Origin: Nitrospirota bacterium
Lineage (GTDB): Bacteria > Nitrospirota > Thermodesulfovibrionia > Thermodesulfovibrionales > Dissulfurispiraceae
Direction: 5' to 3'
NCBI GenBank assembly: GCA_963790025.1
Contig: CAWBMP010000004.1
Coordinates: 544,001 to 608,000, forward strand
Length of the DNA: 64,000 bases
The position numbers and the translations under genes are program-made. The notes beneath the pieces were generated by a model. The model had not been told where the DNA came from and did not search any database. It was given only the letters and a program-made list of their open reading frames with translations. Shown here in pieces: positions 33,698 to 45,671 of the stretch (positions are counted from its first letter, which is position 1; each line of letters starts with the position of its first letter).

Positions 33698-35263
33698 ATG
33701 GTACAATGTTTCGTGCAGATTATGTTTATCGCAACATTCATAATATCACTGTTCTGTTTCCTCAGCTTGCCATCAGGCGCATGGGCATTTGTGTCCCACG
33801 ATTACCCTGCGACGTTCGTTAATGAGATGGCCCGAATATATTTCCTCATTTCATGCCTTGTCGTCTTAGGGGCCATGATCTATAACCGGCTTCACAAAGA
33901 AAAAGTCTGGCGGAATATGATTATTGCGCTGCTGTTCTTCATATTATGGGACATCGTTGTCTTTGCAGGACAAATGGCTGAGCATTGGGTATCGCCGTAT
34001 CAAATAGTCGGCAGTGGTAAAGGGTGGGACTATTTCAAAAGCACAATCATACTTAACGGAACAGAGTGCTTTTTTTATTATGCAAAATATGACTATTTAT
34101 TGATCAATATAGCAATGTTCTTTTTCTACTCCGGATTAAGGGCGCATCTAAAAACATACCAATTCACAGCGTCAGCTTCGTCGCTTATATTGCCCTTGCT
34201 GCCGGTTTTCCTTGTAGAGATAGTGGGGGCCTTTATTTTCGTAGTGCTTTCCATCCTCAGCCTCATTACAAGCGTAAAACTTTATAATAGAGACAAAACA
34301 AATATCTTATGGAATTATATGATATGGCTCTCTTCTTCGTTTGTCCTTTTTTCTATCTCGCGATCGGTGGGTCATGTTGCAAAACACGTACTTGTTGCCG
34401 GGGGGCATGCAGATACCTGGGAGTATATCGCCCCGATGACCGGCAGTTTTAACATATTCGCTTTCTTTCTCCTGGGTTCTTTGAGCCTTTTCTTCATCAA
34501 GATGTATGACACTCATATGAGGGCGTTAAGGGACAAGGATGTAATCGAGAGTATTAATGCCGAAATGTCCGAATTGAACAAGTCACTCGAAACCATTGTG
34601 GCAGAGAGAACTATGAGCTTAATGGCGTTGACCGTGGCCGATAAGGTAAGGAACCCGGCCTCCATAATAGGGATCGTCTGCAAAAGAGTGCTCGACAAGA
34701 AAGAGGAATTGTCCAATGTCATTTCTAATCTCAGTGCAGCAGTAGATGAGTGCGAAAAATTGCAGGCCATCGTAGGGGATTTCGAGAACCTGCTCAGGAC
34801 CAGGAAATCCGTGTTCAGGTATGAGGACATTAACGAGATTATCAGAAGTGTTATCCCTGTTCTTGAAAAAGAGGCCGCCGTAAAAGGAGTACATATGGCC
34901 GTGGCCCTTTCGGAAAAGCCCTTGAAGATTAATGCCGAAAAAAGCCTCCTCAGGGTGGCGCTGTTCCATGTTCTGAGAAACGCGCTGGATGCAACTGAGG
35001 CAAAAGGCACTATTAATATCTCATCCCGCAGTGACGCCGATAATGCAGTTGTATGTATATCGGACACCGGTCGCGGCATAAAGAAAGAGGACCTTGACAG
35101 AATCTTCGATACCTTTTACAGCACGAAGAGTTTCGGGTTTGGCATGGGGTTGCCGCTGGTAAAGCAAATAATATCCGAGCACCTCGGAGAAATAAAGATT
35201 GACAGCGAAGAGTGGAAAGGGACGACTGTAACAATACTGCTCCCCACAAGATGGAAAGGATAA
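33698..35263 (+). CDS. Multi-TM sensor kinase-like protein lacking the phospho-acceptor His (start possibly GTG 33713)
   Basis: Several TM helices; H-box ADKVRNP; HATPase boxes HVLRNA, DTGRGI, FYSTK, GMGL. Confidence 0.85.
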   Translation: MVQCFVQIMFIATFIISLFCFLSLPSGAWAFVSHDYPATFVNEMARIYFLISCLVVLGAMIYNRLHKEKVWRNMIIALLFFILWDIVVFAGQMAEHWVSPYQIVGSGKGWDYFKSTIILNGTECFFYYAKYDYLLINIAMFFFYSGLRAHLKTYQFTASASSLILPLLPVFLVEIVGAFIFVVLSILSLITSVKLYNRDKTNILWNYMIWLSSSFVLFSISRSVGHVAKHVLVAGGHADTWEYIAPMTGSFNIFAFFLLGSLSLFFIKMYDTHMRALRDKDVIESINAEMSELNKSLETIVAERTMSLMALTVADKVRNPASIIGIVCKRVLDKKEELSNVISNLSAAVDECEKLQAIVGDFENLLRTRKSVFRYEDINEIIRSVIPVLEKEAAVKGVHMAVALSEKPLKINAEKSLLRVALFHVLRNALDATEAKGTINISSRSDADNAVVCISDTGRGIKKEDLDRIFDTFYSTKSFGFGMGLPLVKQIISEHLGEIKIDSEEWKGTTVTILLPTRWKG

Positions 35264-35298: not shown

Positions 35299-35580
35299 TT
35301 ATTTGCGGTCCATTAATTTATATGCACTTAACAGCTTCTCCCGGGCCTCTTGCATCCTGTGCATGGCATCTCCAGCCTTTGCCATTTCCACTTTAATATT
35401 CTCCACTCCCAGATTTGAGACCTGTTGAATGGATTTAACAGTTTCGGATTGGATATTCACGGCATCGGACAATACGTTATTCAGAACATCACTGAAAGGA
35501 TTGTCGGCCTTTTTATTGGAAGGCCTCTGTGACTCCGGAGTTCCAGCGGGTATGCCTTGTATCTTTGTTATATCATTCAT
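35299..35580 (-). CDS. Small helical hypothetical protein
   Basis: 93-aa ORF with its own TTGACT-N17-TATAAC promoter. Confidence 0.65.
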   Translation of the reverse strand: MNDITKIQGIPAGTPESQRPSNKKADNPFSDVLNNVLSDAVNIQSETVKSIQQVSNLGVENIKVEMAKAGDAMHRMQEAREKLLSAYKLMDRK

Positions 35581-36016: not shown

Positions 36017-37702
36017 GTGCCGTTTAATACCATTCCAATAAAAGACTTTGTCAGCCGGGAAAGCGAACTGAATTATTTGAAGCGTTTTGCCGACCTCAGA
36101 GATTATACTATGACCGGGAACATACTGCTCGAAGGGGCGCGCGGTATAGGCAAGACTGAACTTATCAAGCAGATGTACCGCATTATTTTTTTGAAGGGTA
36201 ATAATATTGTCCCCTTTTATTACCTGTTTCAGCGGGGGAACCTGAAGGCGTCTCATTTTGCCAAAGATTATTTTACACGATTTGTGAGGCAATATATTGC
36301 ATACGTGAAGAAAGACCCCTCTTTTATTGATGCAATGAGCACGTCGCTGACACGGCTTATTCCGGTGATTGCTTCTCTCAGGCTTGAATGGATGATAGAT
36401 CTCATCGAGGATTTTCAGGAACAAGTGAAAAACGGCGATCTCTACGGACAGATACTTGCAGCTATTTCTGCGCCTGTCACCGCGGCAAGCGAGAGCAGAA
36501 GACCGGTATTTGTTATGCTTGATGACTTCCACATGGCGACCCAGCTTTATGAAACAAATCCCGGTGATGTCCCGGGCCTGATCGGTCTATTCGAAGGCTC
36601 TGTAAGGAACTATCTTTGTCCGCATTTGCTGACAGGCTCTCCTGAGGGAGTTCTGGAGTCCATCTTTGCCGATAACGCGTTCAGGGGCAAGGCTGAGAGA
36701 CTTTTCCTGAAACAGCTGCCGGAGGACGTCGCTTATTCTCTTTTTAGAGCATACTGCGACAAGCTCAAAATAAACGGCGACAAGGACGCCATCCTTAAAT
36801 TCGTAAGGATCCTCGGCGGCAACCCGCTTTATATGAGGAATATAGTACGGTCTATCTGGAAGATGCAAAAAAAATACATCACTGAACGCGATCTCTGGGA
36901 GATTTACAGCCTTGAAGTTTCCGAGGGAGAGACCGCTTTTTACTGGTCGTCTATAATGGGAGAGTTTCTCAAGGATCCCGGCCAGCGAAGGACAGGGATT
37001 AAACTGCTTATGCATTCGCTTAAATCAAACAGCGGTTTTTATGATATTGAACGGCTGGCTAAAATAACAGGTACGTCGGAACCTTCGGTAAGGTCTGTGC
37101 TCGAAGCGCTTCGGATGGCGGGCATCGTGCAGGAAGGGGGCCACATCTGGTATTTAAATGATAATGTACTGCAGGATTTCATACAAAGCCTGCATATGAG
37201 AGAGGTGGAAGGGCTGAAAACGAAGCAGATAAGGGAGCTTATAGAGGCCAGGTATTGCCAGGTAAGCGGCGCCTCTTCTTCCTCGTTTGAGATGATTATC
37301 CCGATGGTCTCCGATGCGGAGCTCGTTGCGGCAAGGGCTGTGGAGCAAGTAGGAAAGAATATCAGCCTTGCGCCCGATGTGATCGACCATATCAAGCTCG
37401 CGCTTATAGAATCATGCATTAATGCAATGGAGCACAGCGGAAGTTACGATAAAAATATCTATCTCAAATTTATCGTGTCGGATGAAAGGATCGAGATAAT
37501 CATTGAGAGCCCGGGCAAGTTTTTCGACATCGAAACGGTTGAGGAGGCCACCATTGAGGAGAAGTTCCATACAGAACATAAAAGGGGCTGGGGCCTGAAG
37601 CTCATCCGTTCCATTATGGATGATGTCAGGATAGAGAGAATAGAGGACAGAACAAGGGTGATCCTTGTAAAAAATATCAAGACTAATGAGGTGCTTGGAT
37701 GA
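36017..37702 (+). CDS. P-loop NTPase fused to a C-terminal RsbW/SpoIIAB-type anti-sigma kinase domain
   Basis: Walker A GARGIGKT, Walker B VFVMLDD, GGNP, wHTH-like segment, LALIESCINAMEHS...RGWGLKLIRSIMDDV. Confidence 0.85.
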   Translation: MPFNTIPIKDFVSRESELNYLKRFADLRDYTMTGNILLEGARGIGKTELIKQMYRIIFLKGNNIVPFYYLFQRGNLKASHFAKDYFTRFVRQYIAYVKKDPSFIDAMSTSLTRLIPVIASLRLEWMIDLIEDFQEQVKNGDLYGQILAAISAPVTAASESRRPVFVMLDDFHMATQLYETNPGDVPGLIGLFEGSVRNYLCPHLLTGSPEGVLESIFADNAFRGKAERLFLKQLPEDVAYSLFRAYCDKLKINGDKDAILKFVRILGGNPLYMRNIVRSIWKMQKKYITERDLWEIYSLEVSEGETAFYWSSIMGEFLKDPGQRRTGIKLLMHSLKSNSGFYDIERLAKITGTSEPSVRSVLEALRMAGIVQEGGHIWYLNDNVLQDFIQSLHMREVEGLKTKQIRELIEARYCQVSGASSSSFEMIIPMVSDAELVAARAVEQVGKNISLAPDVIDHIKLALIESCINAMEHSGSYDKNIYLKFIVSDERIEIIIESPGKFFDIETVEEATIEEKFHTEHKRGWGLKLIRSIMDDVRIERIEDRTRVILVKNIKTNEVLG

Positions 37703-38055
37703 CTGTGATGAACTTTAAAGTGACGTCAAAGATCATACGGGATGTGGCGATCCTTTACCCGCAGGGATATTTAAACAATATCGCCGGTGAGAACCTTGTG
37801 CAGGAATGCAACAACTGCCTCGGAAGTGAGATCAAAAAAGTTGTGCTGAATTTCAGAGAAACCGATTTTATCAATACCATCGGCATTTCGATGCTGCTGA
37901 CTATCATCGAAAAGTTGAAAGATGAAGGTGGGACACTTTGCTTTACGAATCTGAGCAGGGCATATCATGATACTTTTGAGATGATTGGTCTTACCAGGTA
38001 TATCCATATCTTTCCCGACGAAAAGGAGGCCATGCGGTATCTGAGTGAAGCATAG
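37699..38055 (+). CDS. STAS-domain anti-sigma factor antagonist
   Basis: PQGYLN, KVVLNF...FINTIGISML, TFEMIGL; ATGA overlap with the upstream gene. Confidence 0.9.
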   Translation: MTVMNFKVTSKIIRDVAILYPQGYLNNIAGENLVQECNNCLGSEIKKVVLNFRETDFINTIGISMLLTIIEKLKDEGGTLCFTNLSRAYHDTFEMIGLTRYIHIFPDEKEAMRYLSEA

Positions 38056-38134: not shown

Positions 38135-39310
38135 ATGATGACGCCAAAAGACAATATGATCCTGCAAAAAATCAGGGAGGGCTATTGTCTGCCGATGCTC
38201 TCCCCTGTTGCCGTTCGCCTGATAGAACTTGCTTCCAGCGAAACCTCATCGCTTGATGACCTGGCCGACTTAATAGCAAAAGACCCGTCCTTTGCGGTGC
38301 GGGTACTGGGACTCGCAAACTCGGCATTCTTCAGAAACTCGGAACAAATCAACACCATCGAGAATGCGATCATGAAAATCGGTTTCTCCCGGCTCAGGAT
38401 GATGGCCTTTGCTATTTCCCTCAGAGACACTTTCCCAATGGGGAAAGTTGGCCCGATGGATTATGAACAATTCTGGAAAACCTCATTATACAGGGCCATC
38501 ATCGCAAAAGGGCTCGCCAAATCATTTCGGAACTGCAACCCCGAAGAGGCATTTGTTGCGGGGCTGACGCTCGAGATAGGAGTGTTGATTATCTTTGACA
38601 TGTTCATCAAAAACAAAAGCAATTACATGCCGGCGCCTTACCCCCTGAAAACCCTCCTTATGTGGGAAAAGGCGCAATTCGGAGTCGACCACCGTGACAT
38701 AGGAGAGCAGGCGCTCAGACATTGGAAATTCCCTGAAAAGATCCTCGCATGCCAGAAGATCCACCTGCTGGAAAAACCACAGGCAGATATTGATGAATTG
38801 GCGCTGCTCTGTGATACGGCACGCAGGTTCTCGTACCTCGTCAGCGAAAAAGAGGCCGGATGGCATGTTATATTTACCGAAATTGATTCAATCTACGGCA
38901 TTAAAAGCTCGGTCCTTACTCCTTTGCTTGCGAGAGCATTCGACGAGGTCGAGGAGATATCAAGATACCTGAAAGTGGAGATCAGCAGAGAACGGGACCT
39001 TATACAACTTTTAGAGAAAGCGAAATACACGCTTCGAAAGCTGACTGAAACTATGGCAAAATGGACCCATTTCGTACTCGACGGGCAAAGCTCGGGTGGA
39101 GCGAAATCAACTTCTCCAATGGTCGGATACTCACTGACTGAAAAACTCCAGATAGTCGCGGTCGAAATCAAAAAACCGCTGACAATCATACGGGCGTTTA
39201 TCGATAATCTGGTCCCCACAGTCAGTCACGACTCCAATGAGTGGAACTATGTCCAGGCATGCAGTGAAGAAGTAAAAAAGGTCGAACTGGCAGTCCTGTT
39301 GTTAAAATAA
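38135..39310 (+). CDS. HDOD-domain protein with degenerate HisKA-like C-terminus
   Basis: LP.LSPVA, DPSFAVRVLGLANSAFF, EEAFVAGL, HWKFPE; tail AVEIKKPLTIIRAF. Confidence 0.85.
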   Translation: MMTPKDNMILQKIREGYCLPMLSPVAVRLIELASSETSSLDDLADLIAKDPSFAVRVLGLANSAFFRNSEQINTIENAIMKIGFSRLRMMAFAISLRDTFPMGKVGPMDYEQFWKTSLYRAIIAKGLAKSFRNCNPEEAFVAGLTLEIGVLIIFDMFIKNKSNYMPAPYPLKTLLMWEKAQFGVDHRDIGEQALRHWKFPEKILACQKIHLLEKPQADIDELALLCDTARRFSYLVSEKEAGWHVIFTEIDSIYGIKSSVLTPLLARAFDEVEEISRYLKVEISRERDLIQLLEKAKYTLRKLTETMAKWTHFVLDGQSSGGAKSTSPMVGYSLTEKLQIVAVEIKKPLTIIRAFIDNLVPTVSHDSNEWNYVQACSEEVKKVELAVLLLK

Positions 39311-40341: not shown

Positions 40342-40545
40342 TTACTGCATCACATGAATGTCTTTGCAGCTTTCCTGTCTTTCCTCACCTCTCTTTATTC
40401 CATATTTTTTGATCTTGTATCCGATTATCCTGTCGGTAATCCCGAGCATTCTTGCGGCCCTCGCCATGACCCAATTGCTGTCTTCAAGGGCTTTGATGAT
40501 CTGGTCCCTCTCATATTCTTCAATACTCTTTTTCAGTATCATCAT
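40342..40545 (-). CDS. Stand-alone Fis-type HTH protein (resembles an enhancer-binding-protein C-terminus), 67 aa
   Basis: ERDQIIKALEDSNWVMARAARMLGITDRIIGYKIKKYGI; SD GAGGGGG before ATG 40545. Confidence 0.8.
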   Translation of the reverse strand: MMILKKSIEEYERDQIIKALEDSNWVMARAARMLGITDRIIGYKIKKYGIKRGEERQESCKDIHVMQ

Positions 40546-40570
40546 GACCGTCCCCCTCTTTTGACTCCGT

Positions 40571-41587
40571 CTATTGCGATGGCGCTCCGTATTTCTTTCT
40601 AAGTTCGAGATTGACTTCGAGCACATTAACAAACTTTTCACCCGCAAGCCCTCTAAAGGGCGCGGAGGAGTTTGCAGCCAATATCTGCACGATCTCTCTT
40701 TTCACTTCAGCCGGGTCTTTTTTTGTATTGGCAGCCCATTTGGAAGCTACCCGGTCGAGTTGAAACTCGGCGTTCTGAAGCGTGATATGAGGGTCCAGCC
40801 CGGAGCCGGACGCAGTGACATAGTCGCCGGGAACGTCCTGAAGGTCTGCGTCAGGATGGTCCTCCCGCCACATTGCAAAGAAGATTGACTGAATGTCGGG
40901 ACCTTCTTTGACCGGCCCAATGGTCGTTGTTGTCTTGCCATCGGTCCCGGTCTTAGTTACTGCGGAAGGGAATTTGCCGGGATTCTCCTGTGAAAAGTTT
41001 TTGAAGAACACGACAGCCAGGTCAGCCGCTTTTGGCTGAGGGGTTGCCGGATTGTCTTTAATAAACTGGGCCACTATGACTGGATGTTTTTTTGTCCAGT
41101 CGTCCACATAAGAAGCATTCCTGGGGTCTGCGCCGACCCATGCCTGGGCCAGTGAATTGTGCGCGTCAGCCCACTGGCCGACTATATTGGGCTTGCCCCC
41201 ATAAACGTCTTTCTGAAACCAGCTTTCGACGTCAGGCGCAACAGGTTTGCCTGCGCCTGGTCCGCTCTTATATACAACGACAGGGCCGAGCGTGCGGGCT
41301 ACGCGGTCACGCAAGGCGTAATTGGAGGCAGCCAGAGAAGATGAGGCCGATGCTGACGCATCGTAAGACGGCGCAGAGGGACGCGGCTGAAAGTACTCGT
41401 CCTTGGTAAAGGGCTGAGCAATGAGCTTTGAGCCCACTATGGTCCCATCAGGGCCTTTCACCATGCTGCCGTTCGCCTGAAAAGGAAATACGGCCTGTCC
41501 GACTGCAAGCAATGCCAGCGGATAAATTATGCAGCAGATAGCCACTGCAACTGCCAGCAGTAAAATACTCTTTGAAATATATTTCAT
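40571..41587 (-). CDS. kdpC: K+-transporting ATPase subunit C, long form
   Basis: FPFQANGS, GSKLIAQPF, YFQPRPSA, VTASGSGLDPHIT, VNVLEVN. Confidence 0.92.
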   Translation of the reverse strand: MKYISKSILLLAVAVAICCIIYPLALLAVGQAVFPFQANGSMVKGPDGTIVGSKLIAQPFTKDEYFQPRPSAPSYDASASASSSLAASNYALRDRVARTLGPVVVYKSGPGAGKPVAPDVESWFQKDVYGGKPNIVGQWADAHNSLAQAWVGADPRNASYVDDWTKKHPVIVAQFIKDNPATPQPKAADLAVVFFKNFSQENPGKFPSAVTKTGTDGKTTTTIGPVKEGPDIQSIFFAMWREDHPDADLQDVPGDYVTASGSGLDPHITLQNAEFQLDRVASKWAANTKKDPAEVKREIVQILAANSSAPFRGLAGEKFVNVLEVNLELRKKYGAPSQ

Positions 41588-41616
41588 TTTTTCCCCTCTC
41601 TTTTTACTTTTAACTT

Positions 41617-43788
<2,172 letters not shown>

Positions 43789-43841
43789 GTTGCACTCCTT
43801 TTAATTCTGTAGTCATTTTTATTGCATTAATCATGTGTCAC

Positions 43842-45671
43842 CTATCCACCGAAGGGTATTGGACCAAAGTGTTCTGCAACTGGTCCGAGCGCGGCAACAG
43901 GCAGAAAGAGCAGTGCACCGATGATGAGAACCGTCCCGAGCAACAGAATGCTGAATGTCGGGGTATCGTCCCGCAGTGTCCCCAGGCCGAATGGACTGGA
44001 TTTCTTCTGTCCGAGATATGCGGCCATTGCCATCGGAGCGATAATAGGAAGGAAGCGGCTGAAGCACATCACGAGACCGGCCGCTATGTCCCAGGCAACC
44101 GCAGTCGGAGCAGGATTAGGATTATTGTAAAAGCCGTAGGTGACACCCAGTCCGTCGAAGGCCGAGCCGTTGTTTGCAGAGGCCGAAGAGAACTGGTACA
44201 GCATTTGTGAAAGACCATGAGCGCCCGGATTGCTGACAGCTTTCAGTCCCCAGCTTGTGGCTGCAAAGAGCCCGGTGGGGAAAAGGATCATAAACGGGTG
44301 GATCAGGAGGGCAATCACGGCCAGTTTGACTTCACGCGCCCCGATTTTCTTCCCAAGATACTCCGGCGTCCTTCCGACCATCATGCCGGCAATGAAGATG
44401 CCGATAATTATGTAAAGTAACATATTGATCATGCCCACGCCCTTGCCGCCGAAAAGGCAGTTGAGCCACATACCCACCATCGGTGATAAAGCGGCAATCG
44501 GGTTGAGACTGTCTTCCTCTGCGTTTACAGCGCCACAGGTAACGTCCGTAGTAAGCGCATCGAAGGTGGCCCCTGCAGAGGTCCCGAAACGCATTTCCTT
44601 ACCCTCAAGATTGCCGAGGTGCTGGTCCACCGGCAAACCCGGAACAGCAGGCAGGGTTACAACCCGTTTCCCGCCCGGCGCCGTGGCGCTTGGGATATCG
44701 TATGTTCGAGCCACAGGATGAGCAGTCAATCCCGGATTCGGTTTCAATGTGTCGAAGTAGACAGACCAGACAACAGTGCCTGCCATCATAAGCAACATAA
44801 CCGAAAAGATGACAATGCCGTGTCTCATTCGGCCGAGCATCCGGCCGTACATCAGGACGAGAGCGAACGGGAAGATCATCATTGAAAGGGTGTTCACAAA
44901 ATTCGACGCTGCCGTCGGATTCTCGAACGGGTGTGCGGAGTTCATGCCGTAAAATCCGCCGCCGTTGGTGCCGAGCATTTTCATTGACTCAAAAGCAGCA
45001 ACCGGCCCGACAACAATGTTTTGTTGCTTGACTTCGCCCTTATCGGTCGTTCCCATGGCCGCTGGTTCCAGCGTCGAAACCTGATAAGAGGTTTTAAGCG
45101 TCATCGGACTGCCCTGGACGATAAAGAAAAGCGCCACGACAAAAGCCACAGGTACGAACATGTAAACCAATACCCGCCACATGTCGACAAAGAAATTGCC
45201 CATCGATTTATCGCTGCGCAAACCCCGGATAATCGCTACCAACGAACATAAACCTATTGCAGCCGATATGAAGAGATTGGCGATGCCGAAAAAGATCTGA
45301 CTGAAATTGGACAGATGCTGGTCCCCGGAATAGTGCTGCAGGTCAGTGTTTGTCATGAACGATATGACGCTGCTAAAGATAGTGCTTGGGGCCAGCATTG
45401 TCTTGTGATCAGGATTGAGTGGCATCCACGGCTGGAGCGCCAGCACAAGGTAACCGAAGACGAACAACAGGGTGTTGAAAATGAGCAGGGAACATATATA
45501 CTGCTTCCAGTTCTGCGGACCGCTGTTCAGGCGCTTCTCGAACCACCCGAAAACGGGCAAGGGCCGGTATTTTGCGTCCATTATCCACGCCAGATACCGA
45601 CTCAATGGGAATGCGACTATGGTCGCAGTTGCCAAAAGCGCAAATGGAAGTAACCACGTTTGAATAAACAT
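43842..45671 (-). CDS. kdpA: K+-transporting ATPase subunit A
   Basis: SFMTNTDLQHY, LGTNGGG, NSAHPFENP, GRTPEYLGKK, SASANNGS. Confidence 0.97.
   Translation of the reverse strand: MFIQTWLLPFALLATATIVAFPLSRYLAWIMDAKYRPLPVFGWFEKRLNSGPQNWKQYICSLLIFNTLLFVFGYLVLALQPWMPLNPDHKTMLAPSTIFSSVISFMTNTDLQHYSGDQHLSNFSQIFFGIANLFISAAIGLCSLVAIIRGLRSDKSMGNFFVDMWRVLVYMFVPVAFVVALFFIVQGSPMTLKTSYQVSTLEPAAMGTTDKGEVKQQNIVVGPVAAFESMKMLGTNGGGFYGMNSAHPFENPTAASNFVNTLSMMIFPFALVLMYGRMLGRMRHGIVIFSVMLLMMAGTVVWSVYFDTLKPNPGLTAHPVARTYDIPSATAPGGKRVVTLPAVPGLPVDQHLGNLEGKEMRFGTSAGATFDALTTDVTCGAVNAEEDSLNPIAALSPMVGMWLNCLFGGKGVGMINMLLYIIIGIFIAGMMVGRTPEYLGKKIGAREVKLAVIALLIHPFMILFPTGLFAATSWGLKAVSNPGAHGLSQMLYQFSSASANNGSAFDGLGVTYGFYNNPNPAPTAVAWDIAAGLVMCFSRFLPIIAPMAMAAYLGQKKSSPFGLGTLRDDTPTFSILLLGTVLIIGALLFLPVAALGPVAEHFGPIPFGG

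Follow-up and report, generated by a model that had tools for sequence, protein, structure and literature searches.

An ATPase-winged-helix-RsbW kinase fusion and its STAS partner from a Nitrospirota bacterium: a putative sigma-independent partner switch linked in relatives to c-di-GMP enzymes

Main finding

A 64,000-nt stretch of DNA from a Nitrospirota bacterium (hereafter the window) was found to encode a P-loop NTPase fused to an RsbW-type kinase, and a STAS protein encoded by the gene that overlaps its 3' end. By analogy to SiaABCD, Bgr and Hsb, the best reading of this pair is an undescribed variant of partner switch that would control c-di-GMP; we give a probability of roughly 0.6 to the pair forming the centre of a partner switch that acts without a sigma factor and has c-di-GMP turnover as its family output. 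Linkage of the kinase and STAS genes to a c-di-GMP enzyme was detected in relatives and not at the window locus, which is a reduced copy of the family cassette. The likely GAF-HD-GYP/GGDEF output was missed by the first-pass annotation of this DNA; it is visible in the relatives alone.

Architecture of the fusion protein

The fusion gene (36017..37702, + strand, by ORF reading) has a GTG start and encodes a protein of 561 aa, in which a P-loop NTPase is followed by a helical domain and winged helix (to residue ~415) and an RsbW-type GHKL kinase (residues ~420-555). The NTPase domain (residues ~1-275; 36017..36841, +) was assigned to the ATPase_2 (archaeal ATPase) family by structure match and by Pfam (residues 11-273, E 1.1e-11, above the cut-off), with an AAA_16 match (E 3.8e-7) slightly below the cut-off. 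Weak helix-turn-helix (HTH) matches (E 0.02-0.05) were detected by Pfam at residues 336-386. The RsbW/SpoIIAB-like kinase domain (residues ~420-561; 37274..37702, +) was delimited by NCBIfam, RsbW alignment and the Pfam family HATPase_c_2 (residues 438-552, E 1.2e-14). An AlphaFold model of the window fusion (mean pLDDT 82.7) was found by structure search to resemble the archaeal ATPase PAB2304 (2qen), Cdc6/Orc1 and RsbW/SpoIIAB (6m36/6m37), and structure comparison revealed a likeness of the NTPase part to the cores of MalT and NLR proteins. Pfam, the model and the structure matches agree on the NTPase, wHTH-like and RsbW-type kinase fusion that had been claimed from the sequence, including a P-loop NTPase fold at the N-terminus, for which the matches to PAB2304 and Cdc6 speak.

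STAND and ATPase_2 proteins are characterized by Walker A and B motifs, an N-terminal GR motif, a GxP motif in the helical domain and a winged helix, as well as an Arg that follows the sensor-1 Thr (hhhToR). The fusion has Walker A at G40-T47, Walker B at D169-D170, the GR motif, the GxP helical motif (GGNP at 267-270) and the winged helix. Among 62 close relatives the Walker A Lys (K46) and Walker B Asp (D169) were each present in 61 and the GxP motif was also conserved. The Arg after the sensor-1 Thr was missing from these short-form proteins, which read H-L-L-T-G-S-P at this place, where AGxRR stands in the consensus of the long form described below. No C-terminal repeat-type sensor, a feature of NLR-like STAND proteins, was found in the fusion, its C-terminus being the kinase.

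The kinase domain aligned with RsbW 6m36 (E 1.1e-10) and retained the residues diagnostic of GHKL enzymes, namely the N-box Glu and Asn (E465 and N469), the His (H473) and the G2 glycines (G524 and G526), together with T546. E465, H473, G524 and G526 were each conserved in 62/62 close relatives and N469 in 60/62. By NCBIfam the domain scored under the curated RsbW/SpoIIAB equivalog cut-offs (54.5 vs 145, 47 vs 155 and 35.7 vs 135 bits). In RsbW-type kinases the Asp of the G1 box (DxG) reads adenine. The A-D-E-G of the RsbW G1 box is E-S-P-G in the fusion, with Ser498 at the Asp position, and this Asp is replaced by Asn, Ser, Thr or Cys in 249/255 family members that bear the N-box (Asp in 6/255). 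The description of the domain as a complete anti-sigma kinase thus holds for the N-box, His and G2 box but not for the G1 box, and the domain is not fully canonical. Replacement of the G1 Asp could weaken or change the activity of the kinase; an altered base preference is a hypothesis founded on general GHKL chemistry, and with the family-wide change to Asn or Ser the kinase may be able to use or sense GTP, which is the substrate of the cyclase found in relatives.

The STAS protein

The STAS gene (37699..38055, + strand) encodes a single-domain protein of 118 aa, with the STAS domain at residues 10-111 (Pfam, E 1.3e-16) and a TIGR00377 score of 53.7 that passes the cut-off of 53.45. The overlap with the fusion gene noted by the first-pass annotation was present as ATGA at 37699-37702, and through it the STAS gene is translationally coupled to that of the fusion. 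Together with homology and the co-loss of motifs described below, this coupling supports the STAS protein as the partner of the kinase. By alignment, the predicted phospho-acceptor Thr60 is in register with SpoIIAA Ser58, as had been proposed, but Thr in place of Ser is no trait of the family: Thr was found at this site in 8/64 and Ser in 56/64 of the family STAS proteins from the GTDB loci and the window, and Ser in 54/54 STAS proteins of soil metagenomes. Thr60 as a special family feature was rejected on these counts. The Thr-bearing proteins fell into two separate clades in a tree of 87 proteins.

Distribution and forms of the family

A protein search with the fusion gave 215 matches; among the 120 listed, identity was 48-100% and nearly all were full length. 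An artefactual fusion was rejected, as query coverage was 98-100% in ~119 of these 120 homologues. The fusion is not confined to this assembly but forms a conserved family in Nitrospirota and Thermodesulfobacteriota, with a long form mostly in Acidobacteriota. A scan of GTDB yielded 70 loci (69 fusions and one stand-alone RsbW, at locus L067, which retains the G1 Asp), most of them from Nitrospirota and Syntrophales-type Thermodesulfobacteriota by title. By profile search of 50%-identity representatives, 271 proteins were detected at E < 1e-30, and among the best 148 new representatives 92 were of the long form (690-880 aa), which carries ~190 extra residues between the winged helix and the kinase. 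In Atlas, Acidobacteriota were commonest in a long-form cluster of 1857 members.

The long form aligned over ~580 residues with a kinase-less stand-alone ATPase (HHalign 99.9%), and its insert gave weak nuclease-fold leads in Atlas (0.81-0.83), whereas no fold of the insert emerged from structure search. Judging by these leads and by its motif pattern, the ~190-aa middle domain of the long form may be of a nuclease fold. Based on this alignment and these leads, we infer that an ATPase-wHTH-nuclease-fold protein first gained the kinase and that the short form, in which the ~190-aa middle domain is deleted as in the window, lost this domain later. The NTPase, helical and winged-helix core is common to the family and archaeal ATPase_2 proteins (Z 22.6 to PAB2304, 2qen, and 21.9 to SSO1545, 2fna, for the long form), whereas the C-terminal RsbW domain is an addition relative to both these ATPases and the ATPase-wHTH-nuclease-fold proteins. 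The nearest kinase-less relative of the family is a stand-alone ATPase-wHTH protein (L208:2968-4752) with an apparently intact tail that is presumably PD-(D/E)xK-like; the same genome has five related copies of this protein.

A c-di-GMP cassette in relatives

STAS was the next gene in 62/67 GTDB fusion loci with downstream sequence (two contigs ending at the kinase, and L067, were left out). A GAF-HD-GYP gene followed STAS in 57/61 STAS loci with room, a count that excludes L025, where the contig ends and the gene lies on another contig of the genome. The HD, HHE and GYP motifs were invariant in 40/40 aligned GAF-HD-GYP proteins and 38/38 soil copies. The cyclases carry GGDEF/GGEEF, and a PocR-GAF-GGDEF gene was directly upstream of the fusion in 13/69 GTDB loci, all of them on deeper branches outside the clade of the window. 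In 80 long-form loci from soil metagenomes, counting those with room, the cyclase was upstream in 50/51, STAS downstream in 48/59 and HD-GYP in 39/48; since these loci were chosen through the N-box pattern, their intact kinases are partly due to selection. A conserved cassette thus consists of a PocR-GAF-GGDEF cyclase, the NTPase-wHTH-RsbW fusion, STAS and a GAF-HD-GYP phosphodiesterase, with both enzymes motif-intact.

Among 201 genomes of the class to which the window belongs (a set that overlaps the GTDB set, so that counts are not summed), 67 had a match to the fusion (in one case a kinase-less ATPase), 23 to the STAS family and 19 to the HD-GYP family. These families are nested, with the fusion found in 22/23 STAS genomes and STAS in 19/19 HD-GYP genomes. 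In two relatives (L041:10029-10112 and L042:4511-4594), all that is left of the GAF-HD-GYP gene after STAS is its first 28 codons. For the STAS of a relative and a dimer of its GAF-HD-GYP protein, complex prediction gave a score of 0.26 (mark, 0.32).

At L067 (89-2442, in a MAG titled Actinomycetota), a family-type STAS is followed by a GAF-histidine kinase and then the stand-alone RsbW. The N-terminal helix of this GAF-histidine kinase is weakly similar to that of the HD-GYP family, and four homologues were found. This arrangement suggests that the STAS/helix-GAF module is able to work on an output of another kind.

Separate decay of the two halves

Motif conservation was compared between loci with and without STAS. 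In the 28 STAS-less loci examined (of 44 such genomes), the N-box and G2 motifs of the kinase were lost in 28/28, while Walker A (GxxxxGK[ST]) was kept in 28/28 and the cyclase was upstream in 27/28, the contig ending in the remaining one. By contrast, the kinase N-box and G2 box were intact in 20/20 STAS-bearing loci examined. By FastTree of 87 proteins, absence of HD-GYP was traced to four events and loss of STAS to two, in the second of which (L054 and L056) the G2 box alone was changed. The association of STAS loss with kinase decay is therefore consistent, but rests on two independent events. The reverse was found in the long forms: the Walker A Lys was kept in 43/92 and absent from 49/92, with E465 kept in 92/92 and N469 in 88/92, and it was present in 0/46 parsed long forms of the soil loci (11/57 were not parsed), which were chosen by N-box pattern. 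As STAS-less loci lose kinase motifs and keep Walker A, and long forms do the reverse, the kinase, STAS and HD-GYP behave as one arm and the NTPase and cyclase as another.

This pattern bears on the suggestion that nucleotide binding or oligomerization of the NTPase gates the kinase, the protein being a STAND-type sensor with STAS phosphorylation as its output. Such gating has a precedent in CapK, an RsbW-like kinase for which the available part of the source describes activation by way of an appended domain (PMC13373217), and would fit the resemblance in fold to archaeal ATPases, Cdc6, MalT and NLR cores and the intact state of both halves in the subfamily of the window (K46 and D169, each 61/62). 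We consider it unlikely, as kinase-intact long forms (49/92, and 46/46 of those parsed from soil) have no Walker A Lys, the NTPase is retained where the kinase is dead and a repeat-type sensor domain is missing. Since the Walker A Lys is lost with the kinase kept and the NTPase stays intact with the kinase decayed, sequence conservation indicates that the NTPase cannot be an obligate gate of STAS phosphorylation across the family; in the subfamily of the window, where both halves are intact, it may nonetheless influence kinase activity.

The window locus

The genome around the window (98.8% complete, 5 contigs) had no GAF-HD-GYP orthologue, the best profile score being 221 compared to ~340-440 for full soil orthologues (class orthologues, E < 1e-150), and thus the family output of the cassette does not apply directly here. 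No substitute target with the N-terminal helix of the HD-GYP family was detected in this genome, which encodes seven HD-GYP-like proteins. An orthologue of the cyclase (RxxD, GGEEF) is unlinked, on another contig (C5:183972-185960), as the cyclase is throughout the 55-row clade of the tree that holds the window; it was not found in 2/2 same-genus genomes. Against these two genomes, dN/dS was 0.07-0.26 for the NTPase part, the kinase part and STAS (HtpG and FlhA controls, 0.08-0.13). The window copy displayed no rate excess and was not faster than an HD-GYP-keeping relative; the other HDOD-type copy had a rate excess in the NTPase part (chi-square 6.9). From dN/dS well below 1 and the absence of rate excess, the fusion-STAS pair is judged to be maintained under purifying selection. 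With HD-GYP gone and the cyclase on another contig, yet the pair under such selection, STAS has probably been rewired to another target in this genome.

An HDOD gene (38135..39310, + strand; by Pfam and locus comparison) occupies the place of the GAF-HD-GYP gene of most relatives, and its protein has a HisKA-like C-terminal segment without the His, as read from sequence. That this gene is the new output of STAS in the lineage, with the Ser-to-Thr change part of the rewiring, is suggested by three loci (the window, L005 and L034) in which HDOD follows STAS, upstream neighbours differ and every STAS protein carries Thr. We regard this as improbable: the three are close relatives and count as one event, the genome has two close HDOD paralogues elsewhere, a 79-bp gap with no overlap separates HDOD from STAS, and a deep clade with HD-GYP retained has Thr as well. 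With a single-protein query, L005, L034 and the two genomes with 28-residue remnants had no HD-GYP orthologue elsewhere.

Loss of HD-GYP, its 28-residue remnants in two other relatives and the missing G1 Asp could also mean that the window pair is decaying, or that the kinase is a pseudokinase which merely binds STAS. The chances of this are small, given the dN/dS values, a window copy that is not accelerated and conservation of the catalytic Glu, Mg-binding Asn, His and G2 glycines across the family, where they are lost only with STAS.

In agreement with the first-pass annotation, which had seen no sigma factor or PP2C gene adjacent, no Sigma70_r2, SpoIIE or PP2C match was found by Pfam inside the 64,000-nt window. 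PP2C genes were near 15 GTDB loci and 11/80 soil loci. With the four sigma factors of the window genome as queries, a sigma-factor homologue was detected in 1/70 GTDB loci and 0/80 soil loci. A classical anti-sigma/anti-anti-sigma pair with an unlinked sigma factor as its target, such as the FliA-like one of this genome (C4:95014-95733), would suit the RsbW and SpoIIAA homology, the divergent FliE-like gene upstream and the absence of the HD-GYP partner, but is very improbable given one sigma homologue in 150 related loci, family linkage to c-di-GMP enzymes and a FliE-like neighbour outside the conserved neighbour clusters.

Other features of the locus and genome were recorded. Upstream of the fusion are a membrane histidine-kinase-like gene (33698-35263, +), with an H-box (ADKVRNP) without His and a Pfam match to HATPase_c but not HisKA, and the FliE-like gene (35299-35580, -; Pfam E 8.8e-7), which is divergent from the fusion gene and apart from the flagellar cluster. 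Downstream of HDOD are a porin-like gene and kdpABC-like genes (40571-45671, -), named from sequence, which a short ORF like an isolated NtrC/Fis-type helix-turn-helix (40342-40647, -) adjoins. A second partner-switch-like pair in the genome (G000:C5:82243-84269; L072:6243-8269) consists of a REC-SpoIIE-HATPase_c_2 protein with canonical DxG, a possible phosphatase source, and a 98-aa STAS-like ORF without Pfam match. By HtpG and FlhA (L160 and L161 vs L209-L214; dS ~0.4), the two same-genus genomes lie nearer to one another than either does to that of the window; at the fusion locus they are far more divergent (dS 0.8-1.4), and one has HD-GYP and the other HDOD. Based on this higher dS, the fusion locus may have been exchanged horizontally. 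A promoter and terminator scan of the window locus was at chance level, and the contigs from two DNA runs were short, none of them spanning either the domain junction or the STAS-HDOD gap.

Comparison with known systems

The kinase shares the GHKL fold, N-box Glu/Asn/His and G2 glycines with RsbW and SpoIIAB of Bacillus (6m36, 1tid), and RsbV and SpoIIAA are likewise single-domain STAS proteins with a phospho-site in register with Thr60, as far as described in the available part of PMC8256260. By contrast to these systems, the kinase here forms the C-terminal part of a 561-aa NTPase fusion and has its G1 Asp replaced, Asn takes the place of both conserved Asp residues in STAS (G-Y-L-N and N-S/T), and no sigma factor or RsbU-type phosphatase is linked.

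According to the available parts of PMC8457831 and PMC5085249, a STAS-type protein directly controls a c-di-GMP enzyme in the partner switches SiaABCD (Pseudomonas aeruginosa), BgrUVWR (Sinorhizobium) and HsbR/HsbA/HsbD, the enzymes being the cyclases SiaD, BgrR and HsbD (PMC8457831), and SiaC is likewise modified on Thr. Compared to these systems as there described, STAS is followed in the fusion family by an HD-GYP phosphodiesterase, the cyclase is upstream of the kinase, the kinase is fused to a P-loop NTPase and the locus has no conserved phosphatase. The fusion family would work like SiaABCD/Bgr/Hsb but, by its kinase architecture, the phosphodiesterase after STAS and the lack of a conserved phosphatase, is not a member of them.

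CapK-CapS similarly combines a multi-domain RsbW-like kinase and a STAS substrate with no sigma output; in the available part of PMC13373217, CapK is an HTH-STAS-GHKL protein activated by ssDNA and CapS a STAS-wHTH repressor. The STAS protein here has no DNA-binding domain, and no immune-operon link was found. PADLOC and NCBIfam anti-phage matches were weak only, and a defence-system reading was rejected. The main text and seven supplements of a STAND survey (PMC13581612) contained no HATPase, RsbW or STAS, and the cassette is unmentioned in the available part of PMC7159879. The view that the architecture is uncharacterized was upheld by a full-text literature search, most subscription journals and bioRxiv supplements lying outside it, which found no description.

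Proposed mechanism and implications

In the sigma-independent partner switch that we favour, the kinase domain would very probably phosphorylate STAS on Ser/Thr60, given homology, coupling and co-loss. The phospho-state of STAS would then, somewhat less surely, turn GAF-HD-GYP on or off through direct binding as in SiaC-SiaD, a step suggested by the nested loss of genes, with SiaC-SiaD, BgrV-BgrR and HsbA-HsbD as precedents. More tentatively, the NTPase-wHTH half could be a nucleotide-binding scaffold or nucleotide sensor with a job of its own. This job would most likely concern the upstream cyclase, with which the half is co-retained, and the half would at most modulate the kinase. It is a speculative and rather doubtful extension that one protein couples both directions of c-di-GMP turnover, the NTPase half acting on the cyclase and the kinase half on HD-GYP through STAS, by an RsbW kinase grafted onto an ATPase-winged-helix-nuclease-fold chassis of which either half can independently become a pseudo-enzyme.

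If true, the partner switch would represent a widespread, undescribed form of c-di-GMP control in poorly cultured phyla. It would add an HD-GYP phosphodiesterase to the cyclases that are under STAS control and give an ATPase_2/STAND-like NTPase a non-immune role. The reciprocal natural knock-outs (dead kinase vs dead Walker A), together with the loss of the output in the genome of the window, provide clean test cases.
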